Shown here in pieces: positions 420-57,746 of a stretch of DNA of 64,000 bases (positions within the stretch are counted from its first letter, which is position 1; every line of letters begins with the position of its first letter). The notes under the pieces were generated by a model. The model saw nothing but the letters and a program-made list of their open reading frames with translations. It was not told the origin of the DNA and made no database searches. This DNA comes from an uncultured candidate division WWE3 bacterium (lineage in GTDB: Bacteria > Patescibacteriota > WWE3 > UBA101185 > UBA10185), in NCBI GenBank assembly GCA_963765125.1, contig CAVXUZ010000004.1:792-64791 (forward strand). Reading direction: 5' to 3'. A program made the position numbers and the translations under genes.

Positions 420-731
420 GTGCTACACAATTTTGCGTTCATAGACAGCAACAATCTGTACCAAGGAACCAGAGAGCTTGGTTGGAATCTTGATTACCAA
501 AAATTCAGAAACTATTTAAAAACAAAATATGATGCTGAAAAAGCTTATCTTTTCATCGGTTATATTCCTTTAACAGGACATACGTGCAATGGCACAAAGG
601 ATCGTCGAAGAAAACTCCCCCGAAATGTATTATGGCAAGGCGGTAGCGCAGGCTGCAACACTAATAATAAGATAACAGACACATCAAGTGCCAAAGCACA
701 AACCCCTAAAGTTTGTGCTTTTTTTGTTTAA
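420..731 (+). pseudogene. Possible NYN/LabA-like (DUF88) gene fragment, frameshifted or truncated after ~50 aa
   Basis: N-terminal ~50 aa (FAFIDSNNLYQGTRELGWNLDYQKFRNYL...AYLFIGYIP) resemble NYN-domain N-termini; remainder is low-complexity and an alternative frame looks more protein-like. This suggests a frameshift. Confidence 0.3.
694..727 (+). terminator. Rho-independent terminator (AAGCACAAAC...GTTTGTGCTT + T-run)
   Basis: 10-bp perfect stem followed by TTTTTTT seen in sequence. Confidence 0.55.
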
Positions 732-908
732 TTAACTCCAATACAAACAAAATAGTAAGTAGCTTAGTCTAGCTACTCAATTAGGTATTTAAGGAGGTAA
801 CTATGCACTATAGGTTTACATAATCACCTCTTTAAGGTATAATGCTGAACAAATAAGACTTAAGAGCCGGATATTTCCAATTCAAATCAACCAAAAAGGA
901 GAAATACA

Positions 909-1397
909 GTGGAGCATATGATAAGTAAGAAGCTTGTAGATAATGCGATAGATTTAGCACATCCTCAAATATTGGCGATAATGGAAAACCCAGCCTTTAT
1001 TTGGGGGCCACGGTATGTTTCAATCGCTGTTGTTAGCCCGCATCTGGATAGGATACTTCAGTATGTTGTCAGTAACCCAAAACAGAGAGAATGGAATCCT
1101 GAATGGGGAGAAGCCGCAGAGTATGGGGGAATCGCAATCTGGAAAGCCAAGACAGCTTTAGAAAAAGGCGTGCCTACGTCTGTTCTTGCCAATGACTTTC
1201 CACTCAGTCTTCAGCGAGGGCAACTTTTTCGATATCCTGGCGGTGTTCCTGGACCACGCAATGAATTTGCTGTGGGCACATCAGGTATTATGGGGCGTGG
1301 TGATGAGGCTATTTCCAAAATCATTATCACACTCATGGAAGCTTTAGCACACCTTGAAGTTGACAAAGCTGTCATTGAAAAAAAGAAATACCTCTAA
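909..1397 (+). CDS. Hypothetical protein, possibly GlcG/HbpS-like (DUF336)
   Basis: 162-aa ORF, GTG start 7 nt after AAAGGAG; weak recollected similarity to DUF336 proteins (GG..G.SG motif region). Confidence 0.45.
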   Translation: MEHMISKKLVDNAIDLAHPQILAIMENPAFIWGPRYVSIAVVSPHLDRILQYVVSNPKQREWNPEWGEAAEYGGIAIWKAKTALEKGVPTSVLANDFPLSLQRGQLFRYPGGVPGPRNEFAVGTSGIMGRGDEAISKIIITLMEALAHLEVDKAVIEKKKYL

Positions 1398-3370: not shown

Positions 3371-3982
3371 GTGAAAATAATATACAGAGGGGGCTACCAG
3401 ACAGAAAACGCAGATAAATCCCTATTTTATGAATACGCAGACGCCATCAAAAACTACATAAATAAAGGTAAAAGCGTTGTATACGTTACTTTTGCAAAAC
3501 CAGATCACTATTATGACAACAGAATGATTGAATCACTGGGGACTCTACCTAACATTATCGACAACAGCAGCACAAACGCCGCTTGGTCTACATTTGATTT
3601 AATAGTCATGCCCGGCGGCGAGATGGATATTCTCCAAGAAAGTCTAATAAAGTACGGCTTTTCATTAGATAAATTAAAAAATGATGTAATTATTGTTGGT
3701 GATAGTGCTGGCGCATACGTGCTATCAAAATATTATTTTGAAAAAGAACAAAGTGGAGACACTATAAAATATATTTTGGTTGATGGTTTAAATCCAAAAT
3801 CTAATTTGATAACCGTGGGGCACATTGATAATGAAAAACACTGCACGCCTGAAAAATTAACTAAGGCACAGAGAGTCGCCGATGAAGTTGGCGCTCGTTT
3901 GCTATTACTTAAAGAAAATGAATCGATGATGTTTGAAGATGGTGAACAAGTGGAATTTAATATTGAAGATGTTTTGAGTTAG
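3371..3982 (+). CDS. Peptidase S51 (dipeptidase E)-like / class I glutamine amidotransferase-like protein
   Basis: VMPGGEMD...IVGDSAGA motifs typical of S51 Ser-peptidase fold. Confidence 0.5.
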   Translation: MKIIYRGGYQTENADKSLFYEYADAIKNYINKGKSVVYVTFAKPDHYYDNRMIESLGTLPNIIDNSSTNAAWSTFDLIVMPGGEMDILQESLIKYGFSLDKLKNDVIIVGDSAGAYVLSKYYFEKEQSGDTIKYILVDGLNPKSNLITVGHIDNEKHCTPEKLTKAQRVADEVGARLLLLKENESMMFEDGEQVEFNIEDVLS

Positions 3983-4061
3983 TTTAAATCAACCTCACAC
4001 AATTTATACATAAGCAATATATTTGGTATATATTTATATTAGTAATTTATTAAGGAACACT

Positions 4062-4574
4062 ATGAAATCAAAACTATTTATCTTACTTCTCCTAGTTGCT
4101 TCAACCTTTCTCTTAACCGGATGTACATTAAATTCAGCGCAAAATAGTGATGCTGACAGCCAAAATGTTGAAGAAGATGTATCCGTAAATGACACACCAA
4201 AAACGCAAGTAAGTGCTGAGAAAAAGGATGCGGAAATTGAAAATATTTTAGACATAGTAAGCAATACAACTGGATTTACTGGTGCTTCTGCAATGCGATT
4301 AAGAAGAAATGTCGATAGCGTATCTCTTGATGATGAGGGAAAAGGATTTTTAGTGAGAATGGCATCAAGCGATGAAAAACTTACAACGAACGAAGAAATA
4401 ATTAGCGTAGAAATGTCTGGTTTAAATTATGAGGTGAAAAAGTTTGAACCCAAAAGTAATTCTTTAGTAACTAAATTCTATAAATTTACCAATCCTAATG
4501 ATGTAGAATGTACGCTTGAAATAAGAAAAGTTGGAACTACTGGACAAAGCGATCTTTCTTTTGGGTGTTTATAA
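4062..4574 (+). CDS. Lipoprotein (signal peptide + lipobox LLTGC)
   Basis: MKSKLFILLLLVASTFLLTGC; AAGGA 8 nt upstream of ATG at 4062. Confidence 0.6.
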   Translation: MKSKLFILLLLVASTFLLTGCTLNSAQNSDADSQNVEEDVSVNDTPKTQVSAEKKDAEIENILDIVSNTTGFTGASAMRLRRNVDSVSLDDEGKGFLVRMASSDEKLTTNEEIISVEMSGLNYEVKKFEPKSNSLVTKFYKFTNPNDVECTLEIRKVGTTGQSDLSFGCL

Positions 4575-4615
4575 TTTAGTGTTTTAAAAAGTTATTCTGG
4601 ATTCGAGTGTACGAC

Positions 4616-5992
4616 TTACTCCATGTCTTGGTTTGTATCCTCGTCTGTGTCCGTTTCCTCTTGCTCCTCTGCAGTACATTCTGAAGCACCTCTTACAATT
4701 GTACCTGTAACCTCAGTTGGTCCTGAAAAGTGCCCAGTTAGTGGTGGAGTAGTTTTAAGTGTTATGGCATTACCACGTAGTTTCGGGTCATCTTTTTCTA
4801 GTTTAAAACTAAAATGCTCTTTGTCATCTGATAGTACTTTTTCGTGCCAGGGGTCTACCATTACTGTTTTTATATGCTTATAACCATCCCAATTAGAATA
4901 AAGCCCGTCACAGCTATACGCGCGCATTTGTGTAATATCAGCGTAAATATCTAAACCCTGTGTACCTGTTACTGGAATATTTTTATAATGCTGATCGGAA
5001 AACGTAACCGACCAAGCTCCGTCTGTTGTGCACGTTTCGTTATACCAATTTTCTAGTTTCACTTTCTTTTCTGTGATTTGATCGGCGAGTATATCCATAC
5101 CAAGTTTTTGCGATATTGAGGCGTGATACTCTCTTTGCTCTTCATCCCAACGCTCGTGGTCTCTATGCACAATTGCTTTAAACCCATTTTGTATCCACTC
5201 CCATAATTCAACATCGCGATCTCTCCCTAACTTTTGCGCAAGAGCCATAACTTTTAGTGCGTCGTTTACTTTTTGTAAATCTGCCTCACAAAAATTTTGC
5301 GACAGCGTATTTGCAATAAGTGTGTCGGGAGGAGAGCCTATTATTTCATCTTGGGTGGTGCCACAATTTTGATTTAACCAACCGCCCAAACTTATATGCC
5401 CGTTGATAATCATATCGAAGAGACTTTCTAAACCTAGCATACCTGCAAATTGCGCGTGATAAGCCCACTTATGTAAAATGGGGTCGGTGTAAGTATCTGT
5501 CCAAGAATACGCTACGGTTGAAACATAATAAGTGTAACCATTCTTCGCCCACGTCATTAGCTGATCAGATAAATCATCAAGCCCTGTTCTTTGCGCAGAT
5601 TCTGCTGTTTCTATAGCAATTTCGATATCTCCAAGATTTGCCTGACAAATATTTTTGTTTAATACGGCTTGAGCCTGTGATTTAACAGTTTCCTGAGATA
5701 CTGCGAGGTCACGATCTTGCTGTTCTTCAGTGTAGATATCGTTCTGATGTGCCTCTATATACTCCATCATCGCTTTAAGAGCTGCAATTTCAGCATCAAC
5801 ATCTTCATAAATTTCTATACCAAGCTCTTCGTAGTCAAGCGTGCCACTTTCTAATGCTTGTGACGTAGCACCAATATCTGAATTATTTGTTGGTGATGAA
5901 AGGCGATAAACCGCGTAGGCTCCGCCTGCTAAAATTAAAGACCCACCGAGCAAGATAGCCAAGAATAAAAGTGCAATACCTTTTTCTCTCAT
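4616..5992 (-). CDS. Secreted/membrane-anchored hypothetical protein (458 aa, Trp/Cys-rich, acidic C-terminus)
   Basis: Long ORF with N-terminal TM/signal segment. Confidence 0.55.
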   Translation of the reverse strand: MREKGIALLFLAILLGGSLILAGGAYAVYRLSSPTNNSDIGATSQALESGTLDYEELGIEIYEDVDAEIAALKAMMEYIEAHQNDIYTEEQQDRDLAVSQETVKSQAQAVLNKNICQANLGDIEIAIETAESAQRTGLDDLSDQLMTWAKNGYTYYVSTVAYSWTDTYTDPILHKWAYHAQFAGMLGLESLFDMIINGHISLGGWLNQNCGTTQDEIIGSPPDTLIANTLSQNFCEADLQKVNDALKVMALAQKLGRDRDVELWEWIQNGFKAIVHRDHERWDEEQREYHASISQKLGMDILADQITEKKVKLENWYNETCTTDGAWSVTFSDQHYKNIPVTGTQGLDIYADITQMRAYSCDGLYSNWDGYKHIKTVMVDPWHEKVLSDDKEHFSFKLEKDDPKLRGNAITLKTTPPLTGHFSGPTEVTGTIVRGASECTAEEQEETDTDEDTNQDME

Positions 5993-7487: not shown

Positions 7488-8150
7488 TTAAAATATTCTC
7501 AGATCGTGCTCTTTAAACTTATAAAGCTCTGCAGGTCTGTGTGTAACTTCTTCTTGCATTCTTCCTAAACTTTCTAACATCTCCAAAGATTTTATTTTTT
7601 TTCGAAAATTTCTTTTATCGAGCTTCTCCCCTAAAACGATTTCATAAATCTTTTGCATATCTGTAAGTGTAAATTCATGAGGAAGAAGTGAGTAAGCAAT
7701 GTTTGTATATGAAAGTTTATCTTTTAGTCTTTTGTGAGCAACGCTTAATATTATTTTGTGATCAAAAGCCATCTCGGGTAACTTGTCTAGAGGAAACCAT
7801 TTAATGTCTTTATAGAACTCCAATGTTTTAATCTCGATATCTTTTGGTGTATTAATGAGCGCAAAGTATGCGACAGAGACAGATCTTCCTCTTATATCTC
7901 TTTTAGGATCACCAAAAGTGTAGAGCTGTTCTAAGTAAATCCCCTTCAGGCTTGTTTTTGCTCTAAGTACTCTTATTGCTGCTGCATCAAGGCTTTCATC
8001 TACCTTTACTAGCCCACCAGGAATCGCCCACTTTCCCTGATAATTACCCGAATTTATTTGAATAAGAAGAGCAGAAAGTACGCCATCTACGACGCTAAAA
8101 ACAACGGTGTCAACAGCGAGTAGTGGGTTTTTTGGCTCTATATCGGTCAT
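7488..8150 (-). CDS. nrtR: Nudix-related transcriptional regulator NrtR-like (N-terminal Nudix domain + C-terminal winged-helix)
   Basis: Nudix-fold N-terminus and basic helical C-terminus (FTLTDMQKIYEIVLGEKLDKRNFRKKI). Divergent from an operon containing pncA and pncB, the classic NrtR regulon. Confidence 0.55.
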   Translation of the reverse strand: MTDIEPKNPLLAVDTVVFSVVDGVLSALLIQINSGNYQGKWAIPGGLVKVDESLDAAAIRVLRAKTSLKGIYLEQLYTFGDPKRDIRGRSVSVAYFALINTPKDIEIKTLEFYKDIKWFPLDKLPEMAFDHKIILSVAHKRLKDKLSYTNIAYSLLPHEFTLTDMQKIYEIVLGEKLDKRNFRKKIKSLEMLESLGRMQEEVTHRPAELYKFKEHDLRIF

Positions 8151-10981: not shown

Positions 10982-11914
10982 ATGAACACAAAAAATAGTT
11001 TTCTATCGCTCTACAATCCTGACGACATCTACAAAGACTACACACCACGAATCCAGGAATTTATGGAACTGGGTGTTAAAGCCGGTTTGCAATCTTCTCA
11101 CAAAGACAAGGTTCGCGGTGCACTAGTCATCATCGACATGCAAAACGACTTTGTCAGACCCAACGGCGCTTTGGCTGTACCCAACGCAGAAGATGACGTG
11201 AAACGCCTGGTGGAATTTATTTACACCAACGCAGAATCAATCACTGCCATCTACTCAACGTTAGACTCTCACTACCCTATGCAGATCTTTTACAGCGAAT
11301 GGTGGGAAAATCCTGCAACAGGTGAACATCCTGCTAGCTTTACAGTCATCACAGCTACCGACATCAAAAACGGTACCTGGCGCGCCCGCATTGATCCCGT
11401 TTGGTCACACAAGTATGTGGCTGAACTAGGTAAAAAGGGAAAGAAAGCCTTGATGATCTGGCCAAAGCACACAATGGTAGGAACTTGGGGCCATGCGATC
11501 ATTCCGGCACTGGCAGAGGCAATTGCCTGGCACAGCGCAGCAAGAATGACACAACCCACTTTTCTGACCAAAGGTGACGTCCCACAGGTTGAGCGGTACG
11601 GAGCCTTCGCACCCGAAGTGGAATATCCCAATAACCCCCGTGGTGGAACGGATACTTTCATACTAGATGCAATTGGGCGCTACGACCGAACCTGGTGGGC
11701 AGGAGAAGCAGAAACACACTGTGTAATTGAAAGCCAAATTCAGGCTGTCGATTACTTTAAAAATCAGCCAGACGTGCTAAAAAGCATGTTCTTTCTGATG
11801 GATTGCACCAGCCCCATCCTTCATCCAGCGATAGACTTTGTCGCAATTGCTCGAGCTGAGCAAAAGCGTATGGAGTCACTCGGGGTGCAGCTGGTAAAAA
11901 GCACAGAAATATAG
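10982..11914 (+). CDS. pncA: Nicotinamidase / isochorismatase-family hydrolase (PncA-like)
   Basis: ALVIIDMQNDF..., LDSHYP, KHTMVGTWGH, ETHCVIES catalytic Cys context; RBS AAAGGAG. Confidence 0.6.
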   Translation: MNTKNSFLSLYNPDDIYKDYTPRIQEFMELGVKAGLQSSHKDKVRGALVIIDMQNDFVRPNGALAVPNAEDDVKRLVEFIYTNAESITAIYSTLDSHYPMQIFYSEWWENPATGEHPASFTVITATDIKNGTWRARIDPVWSHKYVAELGKKGKKALMIWPKHTMVGTWGHAIIPALAEAIAWHSAARMTQPTFLTKGDVPQVERYGAFAPEVEYPNNPRGGTDTFILDAIGRYDRTWWAGEAETHCVIESQIQAVDYFKNQPDVLKSMFFLMDCTSPILHPAIDFVAIARAEQKRMESLGVQLVKSTEI

Positions 11915-12799: not shown

Positions 12800-13981
12800 A
12801 TGCAACCCATTATTACGTCTCTGTTAACAAACGACTTCTATAAATTCACCATGCAACAATTGATTCTCAGAAATTTTTCTGATGTAAACGTAAAATACAA
12901 ATTTTACAACAGGGGCAACACAGAATTTCCAGAAGGGTTTGCAAATAAACTTCAGAAACATGTGAATGCTCTTGAAAAACTTAAATTTCATCCTGCAGAG
13001 GTAAACTTTTTAAGAATGAAAGCACCATTTCTCAAAGAAAGTTATTTGAAATGGTTAGAAATTTTTCAACCAAATGCAAGCCAAGTTTTCATAAAGCAAA
13101 GTGGAGGTAGTTTAGACATAGAGGTAGAAGGCCCATGGTGTCAATCAATCTATTGGGAAATCCCTCTCTTGTCGATTATTTCAGAACTATACTTTTTGGA
13201 AACTAATCAACACGCGGATGACAATTATGTTGAACGGGCATCGCAAAAATTTGCACTTCTTAAAGCAAACGGTGTTTCGTTTGCTGACTTTGGTCTCAGA
13301 AGACGCTTCTCTGCAACCGTACATGAAGCAGTTTTACTCGAGATGATCAAACATACAAGAGGTGAAAATGACTTAGGAGGATTTGTAGGAACAAGTAACG
13401 TAAATCTTGCTTACAAACATAACACAAGACCAATCGGAACTATGGCGCACGAACTTCCTATGGTCATCGCAGGGCTTTACGGCTTTAGGTCAGCTAATGA
13501 AATCTTGCTTAAATCCTGGCAAGATGAGTTCAACGGTGACCTCGGAATCGCTCTTACGGATACCTTTACAACAAAGGTATTTCTACAAAGCTTTAATAGA
13601 GAGCACGCAAACACTTTCGACGGTGTGCGCCAAGATTCAGGTTCACCAGAAGAATTTTCTGGTTTGATAATAGAACACTACAAAAGTTTAGGTATTGACC
13701 CGATGACCAAAACAATAATCTTTAGTGACAACCTAAACGCCAGCAGGGCCATTGAAATCGCAAAGTACTGTGAGGGTAAAATAAAATGCTCATTTGGCAT
13801 TGGAACTAACTTCACAAACGATGTAGGAGTCAAACCTCTAAATATCGTAATTAAAGCTGACTGCGCAGGAAGAAAAGGGCAACCGATGCTTCCCACAGTT
13901 AAGCTATCAGACTCAATAGGAAAAATAACGGGAGATACTGCAACAGCTAATAAGGCCAAGTATCTTCTGGGAATCTCCTAA
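12800..13981 (+). CDS. pncB: Nicotinate phosphoribosyltransferase
   Basis: Collinear similarity to E. coli PncB (LTNDFYKFTMQQ, SGPW, EIPLLSIISE, GLRRRFS, VGTSN, GTMAHE, GIALTDTF, RQDSGSP, SFGIGT, KPLNIVIK, KLSDS.GK); RBS AAAGGAGG. Confidence 0.85.
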   Translation: MQPIITSLLTNDFYKFTMQQLILRNFSDVNVKYKFYNRGNTEFPEGFANKLQKHVNALEKLKFHPAEVNFLRMKAPFLKESYLKWLEIFQPNASQVFIKQSGGSLDIEVEGPWCQSIYWEIPLLSIISELYFLETNQHADDNYVERASQKFALLKANGVSFADFGLRRRFSATVHEAVLLEMIKHTRGENDLGGFVGTSNVNLAYKHNTRPIGTMAHELPMVIAGLYGFRSANEILLKSWQDEFNGDLGIALTDTFTTKVFLQSFNREHANTFDGVRQDSGSPEEFSGLIIEHYKSLGIDPMTKTIIFSDNLNASRAIEIAKYCEGKIKCSFGIGTNFTNDVGVKPLNIVIKADCAGRKGQPMLPTVKLSDSIGKITGDTATANKAKYLLGIS

Positions 13982-14387: not shown

Positions 14388-15194
14388 ATGAACGCTAGTA
14401 ATGTAGTACAAACGTTTTATCGTCGTGCTCGGCAATATGATTTTGATTATGCCGATTATGGAGTGGACATTCCTTTTAATGTTCAACTCGCTCAAGAGCT
14501 TGCTAAAAACGGTAAGGTACTCGAGTTTGCGTGCGGAACAGGCAGAATAACTTTTGCCATCGCAAAAATGGGTGTAAATATTACCGGTGTTGATATTTCT
14601 CCGGCGATGCTCGACGTAGCTCGTGAAAAGTTGGTCTCGTTGAAAGCAGGCGGTGAAATTACACACGATGTTCTTTTGTTTGAAGGTGATATGCGAAACT
14701 TTGATGCGGGAAAAGGACTTTACGATTATGTCTTTATTCCTTTCACTAGTTTTTTGCATCTCACTGATCGACAGTCTCAGCAAGATGCGTTAACCAATGC
14801 CTACGAACATTTAGTTCCTGGTGGTTACTTTTTGGCAGATATCTTTATGCCGGATGTAGTACACCTCGCGCGAGATCTCGGACCCAATTGGTTGACTCAA
14901 GAAAAGACAGTCGAACGTGACGGCAGAATGCTAGTGCGTTTGTCAGCTGTGCGATACAACCAAGCATCACAGATTATTTTTGGCAAATGGTATTACCAGC
15001 TCTACGAAACCACTGGCGACGGTCGACAGATAGACTCGTACTGTGTTCCTATGGAACTTCGTGTGATTTTTCCTGCTGAATGGGAACTGTTGTTAGAACG
15101 AGCAGGCTTTAAAATTGAGCAAAAGTGGGGTGGGTTTAATCGTGAACCTTACGATGCCTCATCCAAACGTATGCTCTTTCTGTGTAAGAAATAG
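14388..15194 (+). CDS. Class I SAM-dependent methyltransferase
   Basis: VLEFACGTGRITFAIAKMG motif I; RBS AAGGAG. Confidence 0.6.
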   Translation: MNASNVVQTFYRRARQYDFDYADYGVDIPFNVQLAQELAKNGKVLEFACGTGRITFAIAKMGVNITGVDISPAMLDVAREKLVSLKAGGEITHDVLLFEGDMRNFDAGKGLYDYVFIPFTSFLHLTDRQSQQDALTNAYEHLVPGGYFLADIFMPDVVHLARDLGPNWLTQEKTVERDGRMLVRLSAVRYNQASQIIFGKWYYQLYETTGDGRQIDSYCVPMELRVIFPAEWELLLERAGFKIEQKWGGFNREPYDASSKRMLFLCKK

Positions 15195-15222
15195 TAAATT
15201 GATTTAAAACCTTGGGAGTTGA

Positions 15223-15260
15223 AACCCCGGCGGTGCTTTATGCATTTCCGGGGTTTTTCT
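15223..15260 (+). terminator. Hairpin terminator (AAACCCCGG...CCGGGGTTT + T-run)
   Basis: 9-bp stem, T-rich tail. Confidence 0.5.
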
Positions 15261-15261
15261 T

Positions 15262-15276
15262 TTTTGGTTTGGTGAT
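15262..15276 (-). repeat. 15-nt motif ATCACCAAACCAAAA (copy 5, minus orientation)
   Basis: Exact reverse-complement match immediately after terminator hairpin. Confidence 0.8.
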
Positions 15277-15324
15277 TTATTTGCTTTGATTATATTTTGG
15301 TAGACAATTAGCAACGAGAAATGG

Positions 15325-15786
15325 TTAAAGATTTAAAACAGCTTCTTTTCTATCTGATAATTTGAATCCAATCTTTTCATGAAACCTTATTGATTTTGGA
15401 TTGTCTACATTAATTAATCCTTTTATTTTTTTAATATTCATTCTTTTTGCTTTTTCAATTAAGCCTTCGTACAGTAATGGGCCAATACCTTTGTTTTGGT
15501 AATCTGGATTAATACAAATGTAACTAAGAAATAAAGTACCTTTGAACGGCAAGGTTTCATATGAAAAAATAAATCCCACAATTTTGTCGTCAATTTCTGC
15601 TACAAAACAAAAACCAGTGCTAACGTTAATACTAAACTCTGATTTTCTTGAAATTAAATGGGACTCTCTTTCGTCTTCGCTCATATTCTCAAAGTCTTCA
15701 TCTAGATATTGTTTCTGCGCTGATACATCAACGCTATATACAGCAGGGTAGTCTTCATTTGTCATTTCACGTATTTTTATATTCAT
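15325..15786 (-). CDS. GNAT-family N-acetyltransferase
   Basis: Q/RxxGxG/A acetyl-CoA motif region (YQNKGIGPLLYEGL). Confidence 0.65.
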   Translation of the reverse strand: MNIKIREMTNEDYPAVYSVDVSAQKQYLDEDFENMSEDERESHLISRKSEFSINVSTGFCFVAEIDDKIVGFIFSYETLPFKGTLFLSYICINPDYQNKGIGPLLYEGLIEKAKRMNIKKIKGLINVDNPKSIRFHEKIGFKLSDRKEAVLNL

Positions 15787-19174: not shown

Positions 19175-19483
19175 CTAGTCTAGTGTGTCTTCGTCTTCGA
19201 AAGAGGCAGCATTTGCAGATTTTGGATACGCCTTCAATCTAGCTCTAGAAATAACGTATCTATAGGCGCCAAGAGCAAAAATACTTAATCCGAGTGAAAT
19301 TAACGCCCATCCTATTAGTAAAATAACAATGCCGTCTTGAATAAAATGCAAAGCGCCAGCTCCACCTATGATTAATGATAGTCCTGTTCTAATGTATGCA
19401 AGAAACGTTCTTTCGTTTGCCATTAGCGTGCGATCAAGCGCCAAAGAATCCCTAGTTTTACAATTTTCTGTATTTTTCATCAA
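19175..19483 (-). CDS. DUF202/YidH-family small membrane protein
   Basis: LALDRTLMANERTFLAYIRTGLSL signature. Confidence 0.5.
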   Translation of the reverse strand: MMKNTENCKTRDSLALDRTLMANERTFLAYIRTGLSLIIGGAGALHFIQDGIVILLIGWALISLGLSIFALGAYRYVISRARLKAYPKSANAASFEDEDTLD

Positions 19484-19604
19484 TAAAATGATAATGGTGA
19501 TTACACAGTTTGTAAAACACTACATTAATTGTGTAATTATAAACCCTATAGTATTTGACAGGTGGGGGCGACGCTTGTATAATATCAGAAACTCTAAAAA
19601 GGAG

Positions 19605-20258
19605 ATGAGAATGCACAACGTTAGCGAAGTCTTTGCAACGGCATTGAGCATGATTTTTTTGATCTTTGTCTTTAAACAGCTCCAAAATAAGTATCTAGCC
19701 ACTATCGGCGGAGAGAAAAACATAAAGTTTGGTTGGATGGAAAAAAACTTTGTCCAATACACGCTAACAATGTCGGTTTTGGAAAGTGGTTTGCGTAAAC
19801 CTATTACCGAAGAACTAGTCTATAGGCTACCATTGCTTCTTTTTGGGGTGGGTACGCCAGCACTGTGGATAATTATGACTCTGTGGTCTGTTTTATCTTT
19901 TGGTTTTGGCCACTGGAGCACACCTCGAGTTTTTTATATTACTCCAAAAAAGATCAGAAATAAGCTTGAGAACAGTCATACCGTTCGTTACTTCTATGAA
20001 AATATCGAAAATACACCACTAGACGATGTTGTTGATGAATATAGAAGACAGGCGGTAAAAGAATTGGATAGAGCTGCTATTAAAAAAGAATTTGATAAAC
20101 AAAGTGTTATATATGTTTCGTTTGCTTGTATTTTTGGCCTAGTAGTGTCCATTATTACAGTGTGGCAACAAAATATTTGGTACGCTGTTCTTACTCACTG
20201 TATTTTTAATGTCGCTAGTATCGTAACTAAAGTGCAAAGCTCCTATAAACTAGAATAG
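19605..20258 (+). CDS. CPBP (CAAX) family intramembrane metalloprotease
   Basis: EELVYRLPL (EExxxR) and FGFGHW (FxxxH) motifs; RBS AAAGGAG before ATG at 19605 (the upstream extension from 19368 is unlikely). Confidence 0.65.
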   Translation: MRMHNVSEVFATALSMIFLIFVFKQLQNKYLATIGGEKNIKFGWMEKNFVQYTLTMSVLESGLRKPITEELVYRLPLLLFGVGTPALWIIMTLWSVLSFGFGHWSTPRVFYITPKKIRNKLENSHTVRYFYENIENTPLDDVVDEYRRQAVKELDRAAIKKEFDKQSVIYVSFACIFGLVVSIITVWQQNIWYAVLTHCIFNVASIVTKVQSSYKLE

Positions 20259-29983: not shown

Positions 29984-30445
29984 ATGACGATGAAAAAGTC
30001 AGTTGACTACATTCTTCCGTTGTTTATAGTCGCATGGGTGTGCTTAATGATTTTTGTTTTTTTCTACGACGTGGCACCACAAATAGGTGGCGCGGTTTTT
30101 GCAGTAGCTTTTTTAGCACTGTTGGACATCGTGCTTATCTTGATGGATTTAAAATCCTGGTTTAAAAGTGTTGCAGTAGTTTTTCTAGGCGGCGCATTTC
30201 TTAAATCAAGTGAGCAGATTAAAAAATACTACATTATAGTTGTCCTGGTTTTCTTAGCTTCTGCAGTATTTTTTGGTTGGAGCATATTAGTAGCAAAAAC
30301 ATTTTTTCTCGGGTTCATTGCCACACTCATCTTTGAGGCATTGATCCTCGTCATGTTTATAACGATAGCAGTATTCTATACAGCCTTTGAAAGCATGTTT
30401 TCAAAAAAAGAAGATACCGCACCGTTGTCGACAAAAACAAATTAG
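29984..30445 (+). CDS. Integral membrane protein (4 TM)
   Basis: ORF, hydrophobic. Confidence 0.5.
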   Translation: MTMKKSVDYILPLFIVAWVCLMIFVFFYDVAPQIGGAVFAVAFLALLDIVLILMDLKSWFKSVAVVFLGGAFLKSSEQIKKYYIIVVLVFLASAVFFGWSILVAKTFFLGFIATLIFEALILVMFITIAVFYTAFESMFSKKEDTAPLSTKTN

Positions 30446-30452
30446 CCACAAA

Positions 30453-30493
30453 GCAGAGGTTTATTTTTTAAATACCCTCTGCTTTAATTTTTT
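30453..30493 (+). terminator. Hairpin terminator (GCAGAGG...CCTCTGC + T-rich)
   Basis: Seen in sequence. Confidence 0.45.
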
Positions 30494-30504
30494 GGTTTGG
30501 TGAT
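30490..30504 (-). repeat. 15-nt motif ATCACCAAACCAAAA (copy 6, minus orientation)
   Basis: Exact reverse-complement match, adjacent to terminator, ~80 nt upstream of hisS. Confidence 0.8.
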
Positions 30505-30580
30505 TAGGCGCTTTTTGCCTAAAATATTAAGGTACAAACATTTACATGCCTATGGGGGTATGCTATTGTTTTTACCATAA

Positions 30581-31948
30581 GTGGCTGTATTACAGCATTT
30601 TGAAAATATCATGCAAAAAGAAGAAACACTTATACAACCTACGATACTTTCAGGCTTTATGGAGCTACTTCCTAACGAACAGCTGGTCTTTAACTCAATG
30701 CTCCAAGCAATCCAAAAATCATACGAATCTTTTGGTTTTACACCATTAGATACACCAATAATAGAAAAGTCAGAAGTCTTACTTGCAAAGGCTGGTGCTG
30801 AGGCAACAAAACAAACGTACAGCTTTAAAAAAGGTGATAATGATTTAGCCCTAAGGTTTGACCTCACTGTGCCACTCGCAAGATACGTCAGTCAGCACAT
30901 GCACGAATTAATTTTTCCTTTTAAACGTTATCAGATTGGAAAAGTATATAGGGGAGAAAAACCTCAAAAAGGTAGATTTAGAGAATTTTATCAATGTGAT
31001 ATAGATGTTATAGGAAAAGATGAACTAGGTTTAGAAACTGACGCAGAAATTGTTGCTGTTACCTACAGCACTTTTAAAAATCTAGGGATTGGTAAGTTTT
31101 TAATCAGAATAAATAATAGAAAAATTCTTTCAGGTTTTATAAAAAGTTTAGGTATTGGTGCCAACTCTGTTGAACTGTTGCGTGTTATCGATAAACAAGA
31201 AAAAATGCCCAAAGAAAAGTTTAGAGAATTACTAGAAGAGCTCATTGGAAAAAAACAGAATGTAGATAAACTGCTGTCACTCTTAGCCATAAACGGTAAC
31301 TCGAAAGATATTTTTAAAAAACTAGAAGATCTTGGGGTTGGTGATAAAACATATTTAGAGGGGTTAACAGAGCTTAAAGAGGTTGTTAAATACGTAAATT
31401 ATTACGGAGTTCCTGAATCAAACTGGGAAATTGATTTATCTATTGCCAGAGGCTTAGAGTACTACACTGGTACAGTCTATGAAACAACTCTAGTCGACTA
31501 CCCTCAAATTGGTTCCGTTTGCTCTGGTGGAAGATACGATGACTTAGCAAATTACTACACAGAACAAAAACTACCAGGAGTTGGTATCTCCATAGGTCTA
31601 ACAAGATTGTTTTACCAGTTGAACGAATTAAAACTTATAAAAACAACTGCTCAATCACCAACAAAAATATTAGTAATACCTTTAACAGAGTCTTTGTCAG
31701 AAGTTTTCGCAGCAGCAAATAGTTTAAGAGAAATTTCTATTCCAACTGAAGTAAACCTCACAAACAAAGGTCTTGGCAAGAAACTAGATTACGCAAACAA
31801 AATGGGAATTAGGTTCGTGTTGATAATTGGGGATGACGAACTTAAAACAGGTATTGCAACGGTTAAAGATATGGAATCCGGTGAACAAACGCAGGTTAAG
31901 TTAAGTGAGCTGCAGGATCATTTTAAAAATCTAGAAATCTCCAAGTAA
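30581..31948 (+). CDS. hisS: Histidine--tRNA ligase
   Basis: Class II aaRS motifs, YRGEKPQKGRFREFYQCDIDVIG, C-terminal anticodon-binding domain; alternative start ATG 30611. Confidence 0.85.
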   Translation: MAVLQHFENIMQKEETLIQPTILSGFMELLPNEQLVFNSMLQAIQKSYESFGFTPLDTPIIEKSEVLLAKAGAEATKQTYSFKKGDNDLALRFDLTVPLARYVSQHMHELIFPFKRYQIGKVYRGEKPQKGRFREFYQCDIDVIGKDELGLETDAEIVAVTYSTFKNLGIGKFLIRINNRKILSGFIKSLGIGANSVELLRVIDKQEKMPKEKFRELLEELIGKKQNVDKLLSLLAINGNSKDIFKKLEDLGVGDKTYLEGLTELKEVVKYVNYYGVPESNWEIDLSIARGLEYYTGTVYETTLVDYPQIGSVCSGGRYDDLANYYTEQKLPGVGISIGLTRLFYQLNELKLIKTTAQSPTKILVIPLTESLSEVFAAANSLREISIPTEVNLTNKGLGKKLDYANKMGIRFVLIIGDDELKTGIATVKDMESGEQTQVKLSELQDHFKNLEISK

Positions 31949-31989
31949 AATTTAAAATATTTAAGCAATAAAGCAATAAACATTAGGAC

Positions 31990-32018
31990 TTGACACACCC
32001 TATAGGTTGGTATAAAAT
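31990..32018 (+). promoter_or_regulatory. Candidate promoter TTGACA-N17-TAAAAT
   Basis: Consensus -35 and AT-rich -10 seen in sequence ahead of an ORF-free GC-rich segment. Confidence 0.4.
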
Positions 32019-32024
32019 GGTCGC

Positions 32025-32520
32025 TAACAACCTAATAGGAGCGCAGCGTTGAATATCTATATTATCTGCTGTCGTACTCCAATTCCTGACCCAGATCTGG
32101 TCGGGATACAAGGTGGTGATTCCCCGCGTTGCGGAGATAAACCCACCAAAGGTTGCCAACGGATCATTTGTTCCACTTGAAGGGCCGATATCCAATAGGT
32201 TTTATCTAACGATAAACCCATACTGGATATCACCCGACATAGACAGGTGGATCGCGGTAGCCTCTTACTTTGCCCTACCATAAGCAAAGTATGGACACCA
32301 ACTCCCAAAAATAATTTTTGGGAACTTGTATTGACGGAATACATACAAAAACTTGTTGTTTTAAAAAGATCAACCAGAATTAAGCAGGTTGACGGTGTAA
32401 AGAGACTTGGAATGTCAAACTTACACTCTATCGTCTATAGCATAATAAAAAACAACAACCAGCCGTCATATACTTGAAGAAACCCAGAGTTAAATGCATA
32501 TGCAACTCTGGGTTTTTTAT
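32025..32520 (+). ncRNA. Candidate structured non-coding RNA (~490 nt), class unknown
   Basis: Bounded by a promoter-like element and a strong intrinsic terminator. It is GC-richer than the surrounding genome, has only short implausible ORFs on both strands, and no match to RNase P or SRP motifs could be recognised by eye. Confidence 0.3.
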
Positions 32521-32524
32521 TTTC
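32481..32524 (+). terminator. Rho-independent terminator (AACCCAGAGTT...AACTCTGGGTT + T-run)
   Basis: 11-bp perfect stem, 12-nt loop, TTTTTTATTTT tail. Confidence 0.7.
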
Positions 32525-32756
32525 TTTTTTTGGTGATTTTTGTGTGGTGCTTACCCCAGCTAATATGATTCCAGATTCTCTCATGTATTACATATAAAAT
32601 AAGGCTTGAAAAATTAGAGATTAAAACTACTCCAATAGCTAAATCATACCTTTTCGTTATTATAAAAACGATTAAACCGTCGATTATTAAAGAGGCAGCT
32701 CTGTAGGTTATTGCTTTTGCAACGGATCTTTTGATGTGTTCGAGAAATTTGGGCAT
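32517..32756 (-). CDS. Small membrane protein
   Basis: 79-aa ORF with 2 TM helices. Confidence 0.4.
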   Translation of the reverse strand: MPKFLEHIKRSVAKAITYRAASLIIDGLIVFIITKRYDLAIGVVLISNFSSLILYVIHERIWNHISWGKHHTKITKKRK

Positions 32757-33175: not shown

Positions 33176-34207
33176 TTATTTGTTTTTTAGCTGTGGGTAC
33201 CTGCTAACTGCGGAGTTGATGATTAGAGTGAGTACCTCTGTAAACTTCAATCCTGCTTTTTCGGCTGTATACACTAAGCAGCTGATTGCATCTGGGTCGG
33301 GGTTTAATCCAGGCAATGTGTTTATTTCTAAAAAGTAAAGTTTGTTAGAATCGTTTAGACGATAATCAATTCTTGCCGCATCACGTACGTCTAGCAACTC
33401 GGCAATTTTAAGACTTGTCTCTTCTACTTCTTTTTTAATTTCTGGAGATACTTTTGCAGGGCATGAGTAGTATTTGTCGTTATCGGCCGCAGTGTCTTCA
33501 TAAATCCATTTAAGTTCGTAACCCGCTACTCTATTAAAACCTTTAGGTAAATGGTCAAATTTTTGCTCTAAAATAGGTAGTACTCTGAAAGGGTTGCCGA
33601 TAATGGTCACAGTGAACTCTCTTCCGTCTACATACTCTTCAACAATTGCCTCAAAATCAAATTCGTTTAGTACTCTTTCAACTTTTTCTATCACTTGCTC
33701 GGGCTTTGTTGCAACGCTGTCATTGTAAATTCCTTTACTCGATCCTTGTGTATTTGGTTTGATGATTACCGGAAAGGTAAGACCACTATAATCTGCGGTA
33801 GAATAATTTGTTTTATTTACGACTTTTGAGCGTGGCGCGCATATTCCATTATTGGCGAGGATTTCTTTAGCGTAGTGTTTATGAATTTTTATTGCGTGTG
33901 TAGTAGGTGAAGAAAACGTGTAAGGAATACCCAACATCTCACAAAACAGCGGTATTTGTGATTCACGCGCGTCGCCACCTAAACCTTCGGCGATATTAAA
34001 AACTAGGTCAATTTCGTTTTTATGTTTTTTTAGATTTTCATAGGCGTCAAGATCTGCCTCTATTTTTATTACAGAATGACCAAGCTGTTCAATTTTACTA
34101 ACAATATCATCAACCACACTAATAGGGTCAAATTCTATGTCTGATTGGTCTGCTTGAAGGGAATACTCTAGATTTTTTCTAACATTATAAGTAAAAGCAA
34201 TATTCAT
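33176..34207 (-). CDS. ddl: D-alanine--D-alanine ligase family ATP-grasp enzyme
   Basis: ATP-grasp motifs, EINTLPGL C-terminal motif. Confidence 0.65.
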   Translation of the reverse strand: MNIAFTYNVRKNLEYSLQADQSDIEFDPISVVDDIVSKIEQLGHSVIKIEADLDAYENLKKHKNEIDLVFNIAEGLGGDARESQIPLFCEMLGIPYTFSSPTTHAIKIHKHYAKEILANNGICAPRSKVVNKTNYSTADYSGLTFPVIIKPNTQGSSKGIYNDSVATKPEQVIEKVERVLNEFDFEAIVEEYVDGREFTVTIIGNPFRVLPILEQKFDHLPKGFNRVAGYELKWIYEDTAADNDKYYSCPAKVSPEIKKEVEETSLKIAELLDVRDAARIDYRLNDSNKLYFLEINTLPGLNPDPDAISCLVYTAEKAGLKFTEVLTLIINSAVSRYPQLKNK

Positions 34208-39646: not shown

Positions 39647-39662
39647 ATTTATATTATAATTT

Positions 39663-40181
39663 ATGAGCTCTATTATGTCAGATACAAACGCTCCAACAGA
39701 AAAAAAGAAACTCGTCATTGGATGGTACTCCTTTACATGCTGTGAGGACAGTACTATTTTATTCACCGAGTTATTAAACGATCACTACGACGAATGGAAA
39801 AAAGTAGTCGAATTTAGATATATACGTTCGCTAAAAACAAACAATGAAACACGCGATCTCGATGTGGCCTTTATAGAAGGCGCCATTTCATCAAAAAAAC
39901 AAGAGGACGAGGTAATAAATATAAGAGCAAACGCTAAATATGTTGTTGCGGTCGGCGCGTGTGCTTGCACTGGTATGCCTTCTGCGAGTCGAAACGCTTT
40001 TACACCAGAAAATATTACAGAACGAATTCAATGGTATTTAAGCCACTTTGATTACAGCGAAAAAGTAAGAAAACTAGACGAAGTTATAAAAGTTGACGAT
40101 TGGATCAACGGCTGCCCGATGGGTGTAGACGCTTTTTATGCAGCGCTTGATAAGTATTTAAAATTATTTGAAATAATCTAA
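39663..40181 (+). CDS. [NiFe]-hydrogenase small subunit, minimal NuoB/EchC-like (single proximal Fe-S cluster)
   Basis: FTCCEDS, GACACTG, GCPMG motifs resembling the NuoB-type CCxxE / GxCxxxG / GCPP cysteine ligands; 172 aa; immediately upstream of large subunit. Confidence 0.6.
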   Translation: MSSIMSDTNAPTEKKKLVIGWYSFTCCEDSTILFTELLNDHYDEWKKVVEFRYIRSLKTNNETRDLDVAFIEGAISSKKQEDEVINIRANAKYVVAVGACACTGMPSASRNAFTPENITERIQWYLSHFDYSEKVRKLDEVIKVDDWINGCPMGVDAFYAALDKYLKLFEII

Positions 40182-50293: not shown

Positions 50294-50697
50294 AAAAATC
50301 AATAAAGTTTATACTCATTGCAACATTATTAATTGTTGTTTACTCATTTTTAAAGAGAAAGCCATTAGATAAAATTGAATTTTCAGAAAATATTAATGAT
50401 GTAGTTTCACCTGTCGAAAGAGTTGCAAACTATAGAGCTGATTTTGGATTGTGTCAAAAAGGTTTGAAAATTGAAATTCCTTCTAAATCTGGTTCGTCAA
50501 AGTTATTTATTAACGATAAAACTGAAACTGACTGTATTGCTCAAACTATTTTTGAATCACAAGGTGGTTTTTTTACAAATGATTGTCTAATACCACTTTC
50601 CACAGGAACTGTCGTCTTTAATGGTGAGAACTTTGAAGAAATCTCAAACTACTGCCAAATAAACTCAACCGGTACCGGTCTCCTCGAACTTAATTAA
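50290..50697 (+). CDS. Secreted hypothetical protein
   Basis: ORF with signal/TM. Confidence 0.45.
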   Translation: MKKSIKFILIATLLIVVYSFLKRKPLDKIEFSENINDVVSPVERVANYRADFGLCQKGLKIEIPSKSGSSKLFINDKTETDCIAQTIFESQGGFFTNDCLIPLSTGTVVFNGENFEEISNYCQINSTGTGLLELN

Positions 50698-56903: not shown

Positions 56904-57746
56904 TTATTTTGTGGCTAGTTGAGAGAGCAGAACAAAACCGCCAATGACACCTGCATTTTCACCCATATCAGACTTTACGATAGGGGGAATTTCAAAAAAA
57001 TCTTGCTTAGACAATTCTTCTAGGAGAGGAGCTTTAAAATATTGTTCGTATGCGTTTGATAAGCTTCCACCTAAAACAACTACATCTGGTCCCCACAGAG
57101 AAATTACATTAAGAATACCTAAAGAGAGGTTTTTTGCGTAATCTGTCCAAACTTTGATATCGGTACAATCTGCGGGTGACATAGCGTAAAGCTCCCTAAA
57201 TCCTGTTCCTGAAACAAAAGACGAGAGACACCCAACCTGATGACACGGAGCAAAAACTCGCGAGTCCTCTTTAATCAGCATATGACCGGGTTCTGAGAAT
57301 CTTTCGTATTGATCAATCTTTTTTCCTGCTATACGAGCACCACCAACTCCAGTGCTCAGTGTTAAGTAAGCAACAACATCATAGTTTTTTCCAGCGCCGT
57401 GGACAGCCTCACCCAGCGCGCCTAAAGTTGCGTCGTTTTCAACAATAATTAAGCTATCATCAAACTCGTTGTCAAAAATCTCAGTAAATGGGATGTTGCT
57501 GAATTCATGCACATTTACAATCTGTTTAAGTTTTCTGGTCTTTTTGTCAACCAAACCCGGTACACCCACACAAATTCCGCTTATTTCTTCACCATTCAAA
57601 ACATCGTACACAGACTTAACAATGTCTTTTTGTTCACATTCTAAGTTTTGATCGGTTTTAAATATATTTTCTTCGACGATATGATCAAGATCTCGTGATG
57701 AGGCTACTCTTGTTTTTGTACCGCCTAAATCTACTGAAATGTACAT
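56904..57746 (-). CDS. ROK-family sugar kinase (glucokinase-like)
   Basis: DLGGTKTR N-terminus, ROK signature with Cys/His zinc motif (CHQVGCLSS). Confidence 0.7.
   Translation of the reverse strand: MYISVDLGGTKTRVASSRDLDHIVEENIFKTDQNLECEQKDIVKSVYDVLNGEEISGICVGVPGLVDKKTRKLKQIVNVHEFSNIPFTEIFDNEFDDSLIIVENDATLGALGEAVHGAGKNYDVVAYLTLSTGVGGARIAGKKIDQYERFSEPGHMLIKEDSRVFAPCHQVGCLSSFVSGTGFRELYAMSPADCTDIKVWTDYAKNLSLGILNVISLWGPDVVVLGGSLSNAYEQYFKAPLLEELSKQDFFEIPPIVKSDMGENAGVIGGFVLLSQLATK

Follow-up and report, generated by a model that had tools for sequence, protein, structure and literature searches.

A candidate structured RNA of about 495 nucleotides between hisS and a convergent DUF2061 gene in a WWE3 (Katanobacteria) genome

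The locus and its flanking genes

The window analyzed here--the whole stretch of 64,000 nucleotides (64 kb) within which all positions are given--comes from an organism that, judging from searches with its HisRS and TypA proteins, is a member of the Patescibacteria, within the WWE3/Katanobacteria lineage. Its HisRS is 65% identical and its TypA 78% identical to the best non-self match; that is, it has no close sequenced relative. Within this window a candidate transcription unit (termed here the unit) lies in a 568-nt gap between hisS on the + strand and a convergent gene on the - strand. The former encodes histidyl-tRNA synthetase (30581-31948; Pfam tRNA-synt_His and HGTP_anticodon), the database version of which is 100% identical but begins at ATG 30611 and consists of 445 aa. 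The latter encodes a 79-aa DUF2061 membrane protein (32517-32756; Pfam E = 2.4e-11), so that the position assigned to the unit in an initial annotation of this DNA, between hisS and a convergent small gene, holds and the small gene is now named.

The surrounding genes have housekeeping roles: they encode an ECF transporter, a methyltransferase, a Ddl-like ligase, TypA, SPFH, PyrF and Dcd. Given such ordinary neighbors, a mobile element or defense island was rejected as an account of the locus; a replication origin or terminus was rejected as well, inasmuch as the GC skew lacks an inflection at 32 kb, and inspection by eye turned up no convincing dif-like site.

Promoter

A sigma-70-type promoter of the form TTGACA-N17-TAAAAT, which matches the consensus at 11 of 12 positions, occurs on the + strand at 31990-32018, just as had been claimed, and carries the palindrome CCTATAGG within its spacer. 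From its position, transcription would be expected to start near 32024-32027; no start codon occurs at the predicted start site (~32026). A scan of all 64 kb found eight matches to at least 11 of 12 consensus positions, the unit's among them. Six of these eight are intergenic, and several lie immediately 5' of genes (for example, 815->909, 29921->29984 and 14153->14388). Because such matches are few, mostly intergenic and in several cases located just before genes, it appears that this organism uses the consensus and that the match at the unit is unlikely to be noise.

An inverted repeat (32003-32012/32025-32034) straddles the -10 box. Moreover, a near-palindrome, CC(T/A)A(A)TAGG, is present in three copies (31999-32006, 32031-32039 and 32192-32199), one of which is inside the promoter spacer and another shortly past the predicted transcription start; this placement hints at an operator to which a regulatory DNA-binding protein might attach.

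Several other features of transcription and translation initiation in the window merit mention in their own right. Many genes have a TATAAT-like -10 box 6-9 nt before the start codon (for example, at gene starts 3371, 7488-8150(-), 33176-34207(-), 39663, 56904-57746(-) and 62146), while a GGAG-type Shine-Dalgarno sequence is found in just ~20% of genes, a pattern which suggests that leaderless mRNAs are widespread in this WWE3 genome. A 12/12 sigma-70 consensus (TTGACA-17-TATAAT) at 19555-19583 on the + strand lies within a 296-aa ORF (19368-20258) and may be either an internal promoter or a sign that the start of this ORF has been mis-set. And two intergenic 11/12 matches on the - strand, at 50429-50457 and 39653-39681, have no - strand gene close downstream and may drive antisense or small transcripts.

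Terminator

The unit ends in an intrinsic terminator on the + strand (32477-32531). Its hairpin (32477-32518), with arms at 32477-32491 and 32504-32518, has 14 predicted pairs and is followed by the U-tract TTTTTTATTTTCTTTTTTT; with an MFE of -21.7 kcal/mol and a z-score of -6.7, it substantiates the strong terminator that had been described. An automated terminator scan missed this hairpin because its loop is longer than 8 nt. From the hisS stop at 31948 to position 32303 the same scan reported no terminator on the + strand. The terminator at 32477-32531 is bidirectional, since on the - strand it comes directly after the DUF2061 stop codon, and hence it marks the end of the convergent typA-ddl-DUF2061 gene string as well.

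Base composition and coding capacity

The initial annotation characterized the unit as ~490 nt of GC-rich, ORF-free sequence, both parts of which need qualification. GC enrichment is confined to the 5' ~280 nt: the segment 32020-32300 has a GC content of 47.3% against a window mean of 36.7%, whereas the ~180 nt that follow (32300-32480), at 33.1%, fall below that mean. Moreover, 32020-32300, at ~2.2 SD over the mean, is not the most GC-rich part of the window; the maximum (50-53%) is at 10982-11914 (11.1-11.9 kb), in and around a 310-aa ORF, and this outlier may have been acquired horizontally.

Nor is the unit literally free of ORFs, as it contains five: two on the - strand (95 and 70 aa) and three on the + strand (76, 56 and 43 aa); what does stand is that none of these is credible based on homology, family and codon-usage searches. 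A phmmer search with the 76-aa ORF against 1.84 billion representative proteins found no real homologue, its sole match being a eukaryote-like repeat artefact. The long open stretches of all six frames, when concatenated, had no match at E<=10 among 5.8 billion proteins, and the open frames matched no family in Pfam, NCBIfam or PHROGs. In codon usage the - strand ORFs resemble spurious ORFs; the 76-aa and 56-aa ORFs on the + strand score between the distributions for real genes and for spurious ORFs, and these intermediate scores are compatible with a small or decayed gene. The GTG start of the 76-aa ORF, the longest on the + strand, is at 32247, where it lacks a Shine-Dalgarno sequence and is buried within a 12-pair helix of the predicted fold (hairpin D, below).

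Predicted fold

The + strand of the unit (32024-32520) is predicted to fold with an MFE of -159 kcal/mol and a z-score of -9.4, as compared with -6.1 for the - strand; when the terminator is left out, these z-scores become -6.7 and -5.3, respectively. Each of the sub-domains (helices A-C, D, E-F and the 3' domain) likewise folds better on the + strand. To adjust for GC content, all 280-nt segments of the 64 kb (~900) were folded and their MFE was regressed on GC: among these, 32061-32340 has the most negative residual on each of the two strands (z = -3.6). The next outliers, with residual z-scores of about -3.0 to -3.5, are 30311-30590, 15051-15470 (+) and 561-910 (-); the first of these covers the 5' region of hisS, where no T-box was found, together with the terminator of the gene upstream.

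The fold has two domains. The GC-rich 5' domain (32026-32300; z = -5.4 on the + strand and -3.8 on the - strand) consists of helices A (32038-32080), B (32084-32106) and C (32112-32147), a long, 114-nt hairpin D (32150-32263) that dominates it, and helix E (32266-32291), with mean pair probabilities of 0.86-1.0. The predicted fold includes 13 G-U pairs, which can form on the + strand exclusively; five of these are among the 12 pairs of one helix within D (32160-32172/32242-32254). Between the two domains is hairpin F (32303-32323; UCCCAAAAA-UAA-UUUUUGGGA), which is weakly terminator-like. The AU-rich 3' domain (32328-32473; 33% GC, z = -2.6) is closed by 10-bp long-range helices, 32328-32337/32463-32473 and 32353-32362/32449-32458.

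A 10-nt motif, GAUAAACCCA, occurs exactly twice in the 64 kb, both times within the unit: the first copy (32136-32145) is unpaired in an internal loop of hairpin C, and the second (32211-32220) supplies hairpin D with the 3' strand of its apical stem, where it is predicted to pair with GGUUUUAUC at 32198-32206. Both GAUAAACCC copies could pair with GGUUUUAUCU; the alternative fold, when forced, costs ~21 kcal/mol. Hence a conformational switch based on competition between these copies is not supported thermodynamically, and none is claimed.

Two aspects of the fold call for restraint. Many of the helices are perfect Watson-Crick palindromes, which are equally possible on either strand or in DNA, and this counts against reading the unit as an RNA gene. 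And the helices are arranged like beads on a string, among which there are no recognizable tertiary motifs such as GNRA loops, K-turns or T-loops. Thermodynamic z-scores by themselves are, moreover, prone to false positives.

Searches for known RNA families

Rfam 15 was searched with the whole window at gathering scores and with 31900-32600 and 32020-32310 at E<=10 (which for the RNase P models corresponds to roughly 13 bits). There were no matches in the 64 kb at gathering score and, for the region of the unit, nothing but microRNA or viral noise at E<=10; this covariance-model scan, which the initial annotation had proposed, thus assigns the region to no Rfam family. ARAGORN found no tRNA or tmRNA genes in the window. 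Consequently tmRNA was rejected on both ARAGORN and Rfam; SRP RNA and 6S RNA on the lack of a covariance-model match at either threshold; and OLE, GOLLD, ROOL, raiA, HEARO and other large bacterial ncRNAs on the lack of an Rfam 15 match in the 64 kb at gathering score or in the region of the unit at E<=10. A T-box or riboswitch leader was rejected as well: no such model matches at E<=10, and a credible + strand gene downstream is lacking, the next gene being convergent. (By direct reading, GGUGGUGAUUCCCCGCG is no more than loosely similar to a T-box motif, with a bulge that would be unable to pair with NCCA.)

RNase P RNA was tested specifically because CPR RNase P RNAs often escape Rfam: in 10 of 35 circular CPR genomes they are reported to score below the cut-offs of Rfam, with helices that have been lost or lengthened (PMC8172020). 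The core motifs sought were CR-I (GNAANNUCNGNG, the 5' strand of P4) and CR-V (ACNRAANNNGNNUA, the 3' strand of P4). Neither CR-V, as an exact match, nor CR-I is present in the region; the best CR-I-like and CR-V-like sites (32284 and 32334) have two mismatches each, are only 50 nt apart with the wrong topology, and are misordered with respect to the putative S-domain. That putative S-domain is hairpin 32112-32147, which superficially resembles an RNase P S-domain strand pair: AAGGUGGUGA...AUAAACCCACCAAAGG is weakly and locally similar to the S-domain strands AAGGGUGAAA...GUAAACYCCACC..GCAAGG of E. coli M1 RNA. A P1 helix is likewise absent, as the 5' and 3' ends of the unit pair over 3 bp only. 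With CR-I, CR-V, P4 and P1 all lacking and with no match to RF00010 or RF00011 at E<=10, RNase P RNA was rejected. The failure to find RNase P, SRP or tmRNA motifs by eye was therefore upheld by motif, ARAGORN and Rfam searches. The suggestion made at the time that this might be a divergent housekeeping RNA gains no support from them, given that the RNase P core is missing and that ARAGORN and the SRP, 6S and T-box models report nothing.

Comparison with related genomes

Loci from 13 relatives were compared: five CPR hisS loci (HisRS 61-65% identical) and eight WWE3 typA loci (TypA 76-78% identical). The order of genes around hisS and typA differs in these loci. The comparison of hisS-adjacent loci, which had been put forward earlier as a check, came up empty: nhmmer --max found no counterpart of the unit at hisS either in the five CPR loci, with their different gene order, or in at least 80 genome loci, mostly from Clostridia. 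In the eight WWE3 typA loci no counterpart was found either by nhmmer or with a covariance model built on hairpins C and D. Searches of phage and plasmid collections using blastn returned nothing. A metagenome scan with a loop-based degenerate pattern gave no matches, another with the 18-mer AGATAAACCCACCAAAGG gave 23 chance matches, none of which extends, and four viral pattern scans gave chance matches alone.

Two gaps in relatives were considered as possible homologues and were rejected. In L084, which contains the closest HisRS relative, a gene-free 1.5-kb gap (3417-4959) upstream of hisS is AT-rich, has no ORF longer than 65 aa and looks like decayed genes; it was set aside as pseudogene-like DNA. 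In the WWE3 locus L105 a 557-nt gap (12861-13418, also in L106-L109) downstream of typA lacks a called gene; its sequence resembles a membrane-protein gene on the minus strand that has either decayed or gone uncalled, and that in L110 is called (192 aa), and the gap was set aside as a minus-strand coding remnant. L084 also contains, ~1.4 kb upstream of hisS, a tRNA-His-like sequence (3508-3590) with acceptor strands GGTGGGGG/CCCCCACC, the anticodon loop CTTGTGA and an unusual T-arm, GGTAAAATCC; this element scores below the Rfam tRNA gathering threshold.

Interpretation and alternatives

The reading that we favor, at a probability somewhat short of one half (about 0.45), is that the unit specifies a stand-alone, lineage-restricted structured ncRNA of ~495 nt in WWE3 (Katanobacteria, CPR)--that is, an orphan candidate. 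As is generally expected of a stand-alone ncRNA, it has a promoter and a terminator of its own and lacks evidence of coding. Of the self-contained structured RNA unit that the initial annotation proposed, what survives is thus the promoter, the terminator, a fold biased toward the + strand, and the lack of both coding and Rfam matches; what counts against it is that no homologue was found in any of the 13 related loci or in the phage, plasmid, metagenome and viral searches.

In the scheme that we infer for the expression, 5' end, function and partners of this RNA, RNA polymerase would start near 32026 and stop at the hairpin and U-tract of 32477-32531; in addition, read-through from hisS, which lacks its own terminator, would yield a longer co-transcript bearing the same structure. 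Once made, the RNA would form two domains, with five helices making up the GC-rich 5' one and long-range helices closing the AU-rich 3' one, and presumably would act not as a message but as a folded molecule, either by binding protein or as a scaffold, for which the unpaired copy of GAUAAACCCA and the single-stranded linkers would be the likeliest contact sites. More speculatively, and in our view rather doubtfully, it might be the first representative of a class, not described to date, of ~500-nt, two-domain structured RNAs in Katanobacteria/WWE3 or related CPR bacteria; such a class might provide an RNP scaffold or a catalytic or regulatory RNA specific to reduced-genome episymbionts, and could have escaped notice on account of sparse sampling of the lineage and rapid evolution of the sequence.

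The same observations can be read in other ways. The hisS transcript meets no + strand terminator from 31948 until 32303 or 32477, and the terminator that it eventually reaches serves the convergent DUF2061-ddl-typA string as well, both of which fit a structured hisS 3' UTR with a shared terminator zone, whose hairpins would stabilize the 3' end of the mRNA or insulate the convergent operons and for which the promoter match would be fortuitous or of minor importance. The inverted repeat 32003-32012/32025-32034 fits this as well: as it spans the -10 box, it would exist only in read-through RNA. A UTR of 570 nt would, however, be extravagant for a compact CPR genome; the promoter is among the eight best in 64 kb, and such matches are strongly tied to real starts; and the combination of GC enrichment in the face of AT mutational pressure with the top-ranked fold points to selection on more than a terminator. 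We therefore regard a 3' UTR as unlikely. To a decayed gene or a foreign remnant of higher GC content, in which the structure is incidental, we assign a similarly small probability. On this account a former coding region has been frameshifted, with ~140 codons obtained by joining + frames 1 and 0, and indeed the open stretches of these two frames tile 32056-32477, from just past the promoter to shortly before the terminator; furthermore, in GC content the region departs from what is typical of the genome, and pseudogenes occur both elsewhere in the window (according to an earlier reading of the sequence) and in relatives (L105 and L084). Yet the region shows no translated similarity at E<=10 to any of 5.8 billion proteins and none to Pfam, NCBIfam or PHROGs families, the coding DNA of the window never folds as strongly as the unit (which ranks first of ~900 segments), and neither strand-biased z-scores nor G-U pairs are to be expected in a dead gene.

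Quite unlikely, in our judgment, is a gene for a small protein with a long structured leader, which would encode a peptide of 21-76 aa in the + frame ending at 32477, with the GC-rich domain as a cis-regulatory element and hairpin F, flagged as terminator-like, as a regulated terminator or sequestrator. It draws on a 92-codon open stretch (32199-32477) that stops three bases before the terminator, on a codon score (0.025) which is between those of real and spurious ORFs at a locus where the real DUF2061 gene scores merely 0.061, and on an ATG at 32412 with AAAGAGA 8-14 nt upstream, as in some real genes here. It has to contend with the lack of homologues among 1.84 billion representative proteins and of family matches, with the sequestered GTG 32247 and its missing Shine-Dalgarno sequence, with the lack of a leaderless start at the predicted transcription start site, and with the failure of any riboswitch or T-box model to match at E<=10. 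A highly diverged housekeeping RNA, of which RNase P RNA would be the most plausible, strikes us as very improbable indeed: CPR RNase P RNAs often fall under Rfam thresholds (PMC8172020), and neither RNase P RNA nor tmRNA nor SRP RNA is seen elsewhere in the 64 kb, and hairpin 32112-32147 bears its weak resemblance to S-domain strands, but CR-I and CR-V are absent, the ends pair over 3 bp, RF00010 and RF00011 are silent at E<=10 and ARAGORN reports no tmRNA.

Relation to known RNAs and significance

Large structured ncRNAs have been sought in AT-rich bacteria as long, GC-rich intergenic regions, the so-called GC-IGR approach (PMC6429828, PMC8632094, PMC11109978). The unit resembles the ncRNAs found in this way, and OLE, GOLLD, ROOL and raiA, in being long, ORF-poor and GC-enriched within an AT-rich genome and in having a housekeeping context, as well as in its own promoter and intrinsic terminator, its many stable helices and its length of several hundred nt. 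Unlike the OLE, GOLLD, ROOL and raiA classes, which are defined by covariation, it is known from one representative, for which no homologue could be detected, and as such it would rank as a low-confidence candidate among GC-IGR candidates. With 3'-UTR sRNAs of the DapZ and MicL type it shares its location directly downstream of a terminator-less gene, a shared terminator and an internal promoter; those sRNAs, however, are 50-150 nt, base-pairing and Hfq-dependent, whereas the unit is ~495 nt and almost fully paired. And it is like type A RNase P RNA in size and in GC enrichment within an AT-rich genome, but differs in lacking the catalytic core (CR-I/CR-V, P4 and the bulged U), P1 and the domain order. 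Hence the unit belongs to no described family, although a GC-rich intergenic ncRNA running from promoter to terminator is a familiar kind of element.

CPR bacteria make up a large part of bacterial diversity and yet, to our knowledge, almost nothing is known about their ncRNAs beyond rRNA, tRNA and a diverged RNase P. If the unit should turn out to be a structured UTR or a dead gene, it would serve as a caution that thermodynamic signals together with promoter and terminator matches are insufficient alone. If the favored reading of a stand-alone structured ncRNA is true, an RNA of 500 nt that is kept GC-rich against AT pressure within an economizing genome would imply an RNA-based function as yet unknown, and would offer a concrete target for metatranscriptomics, for structure probing and for covariance searches across Katanobacteria.
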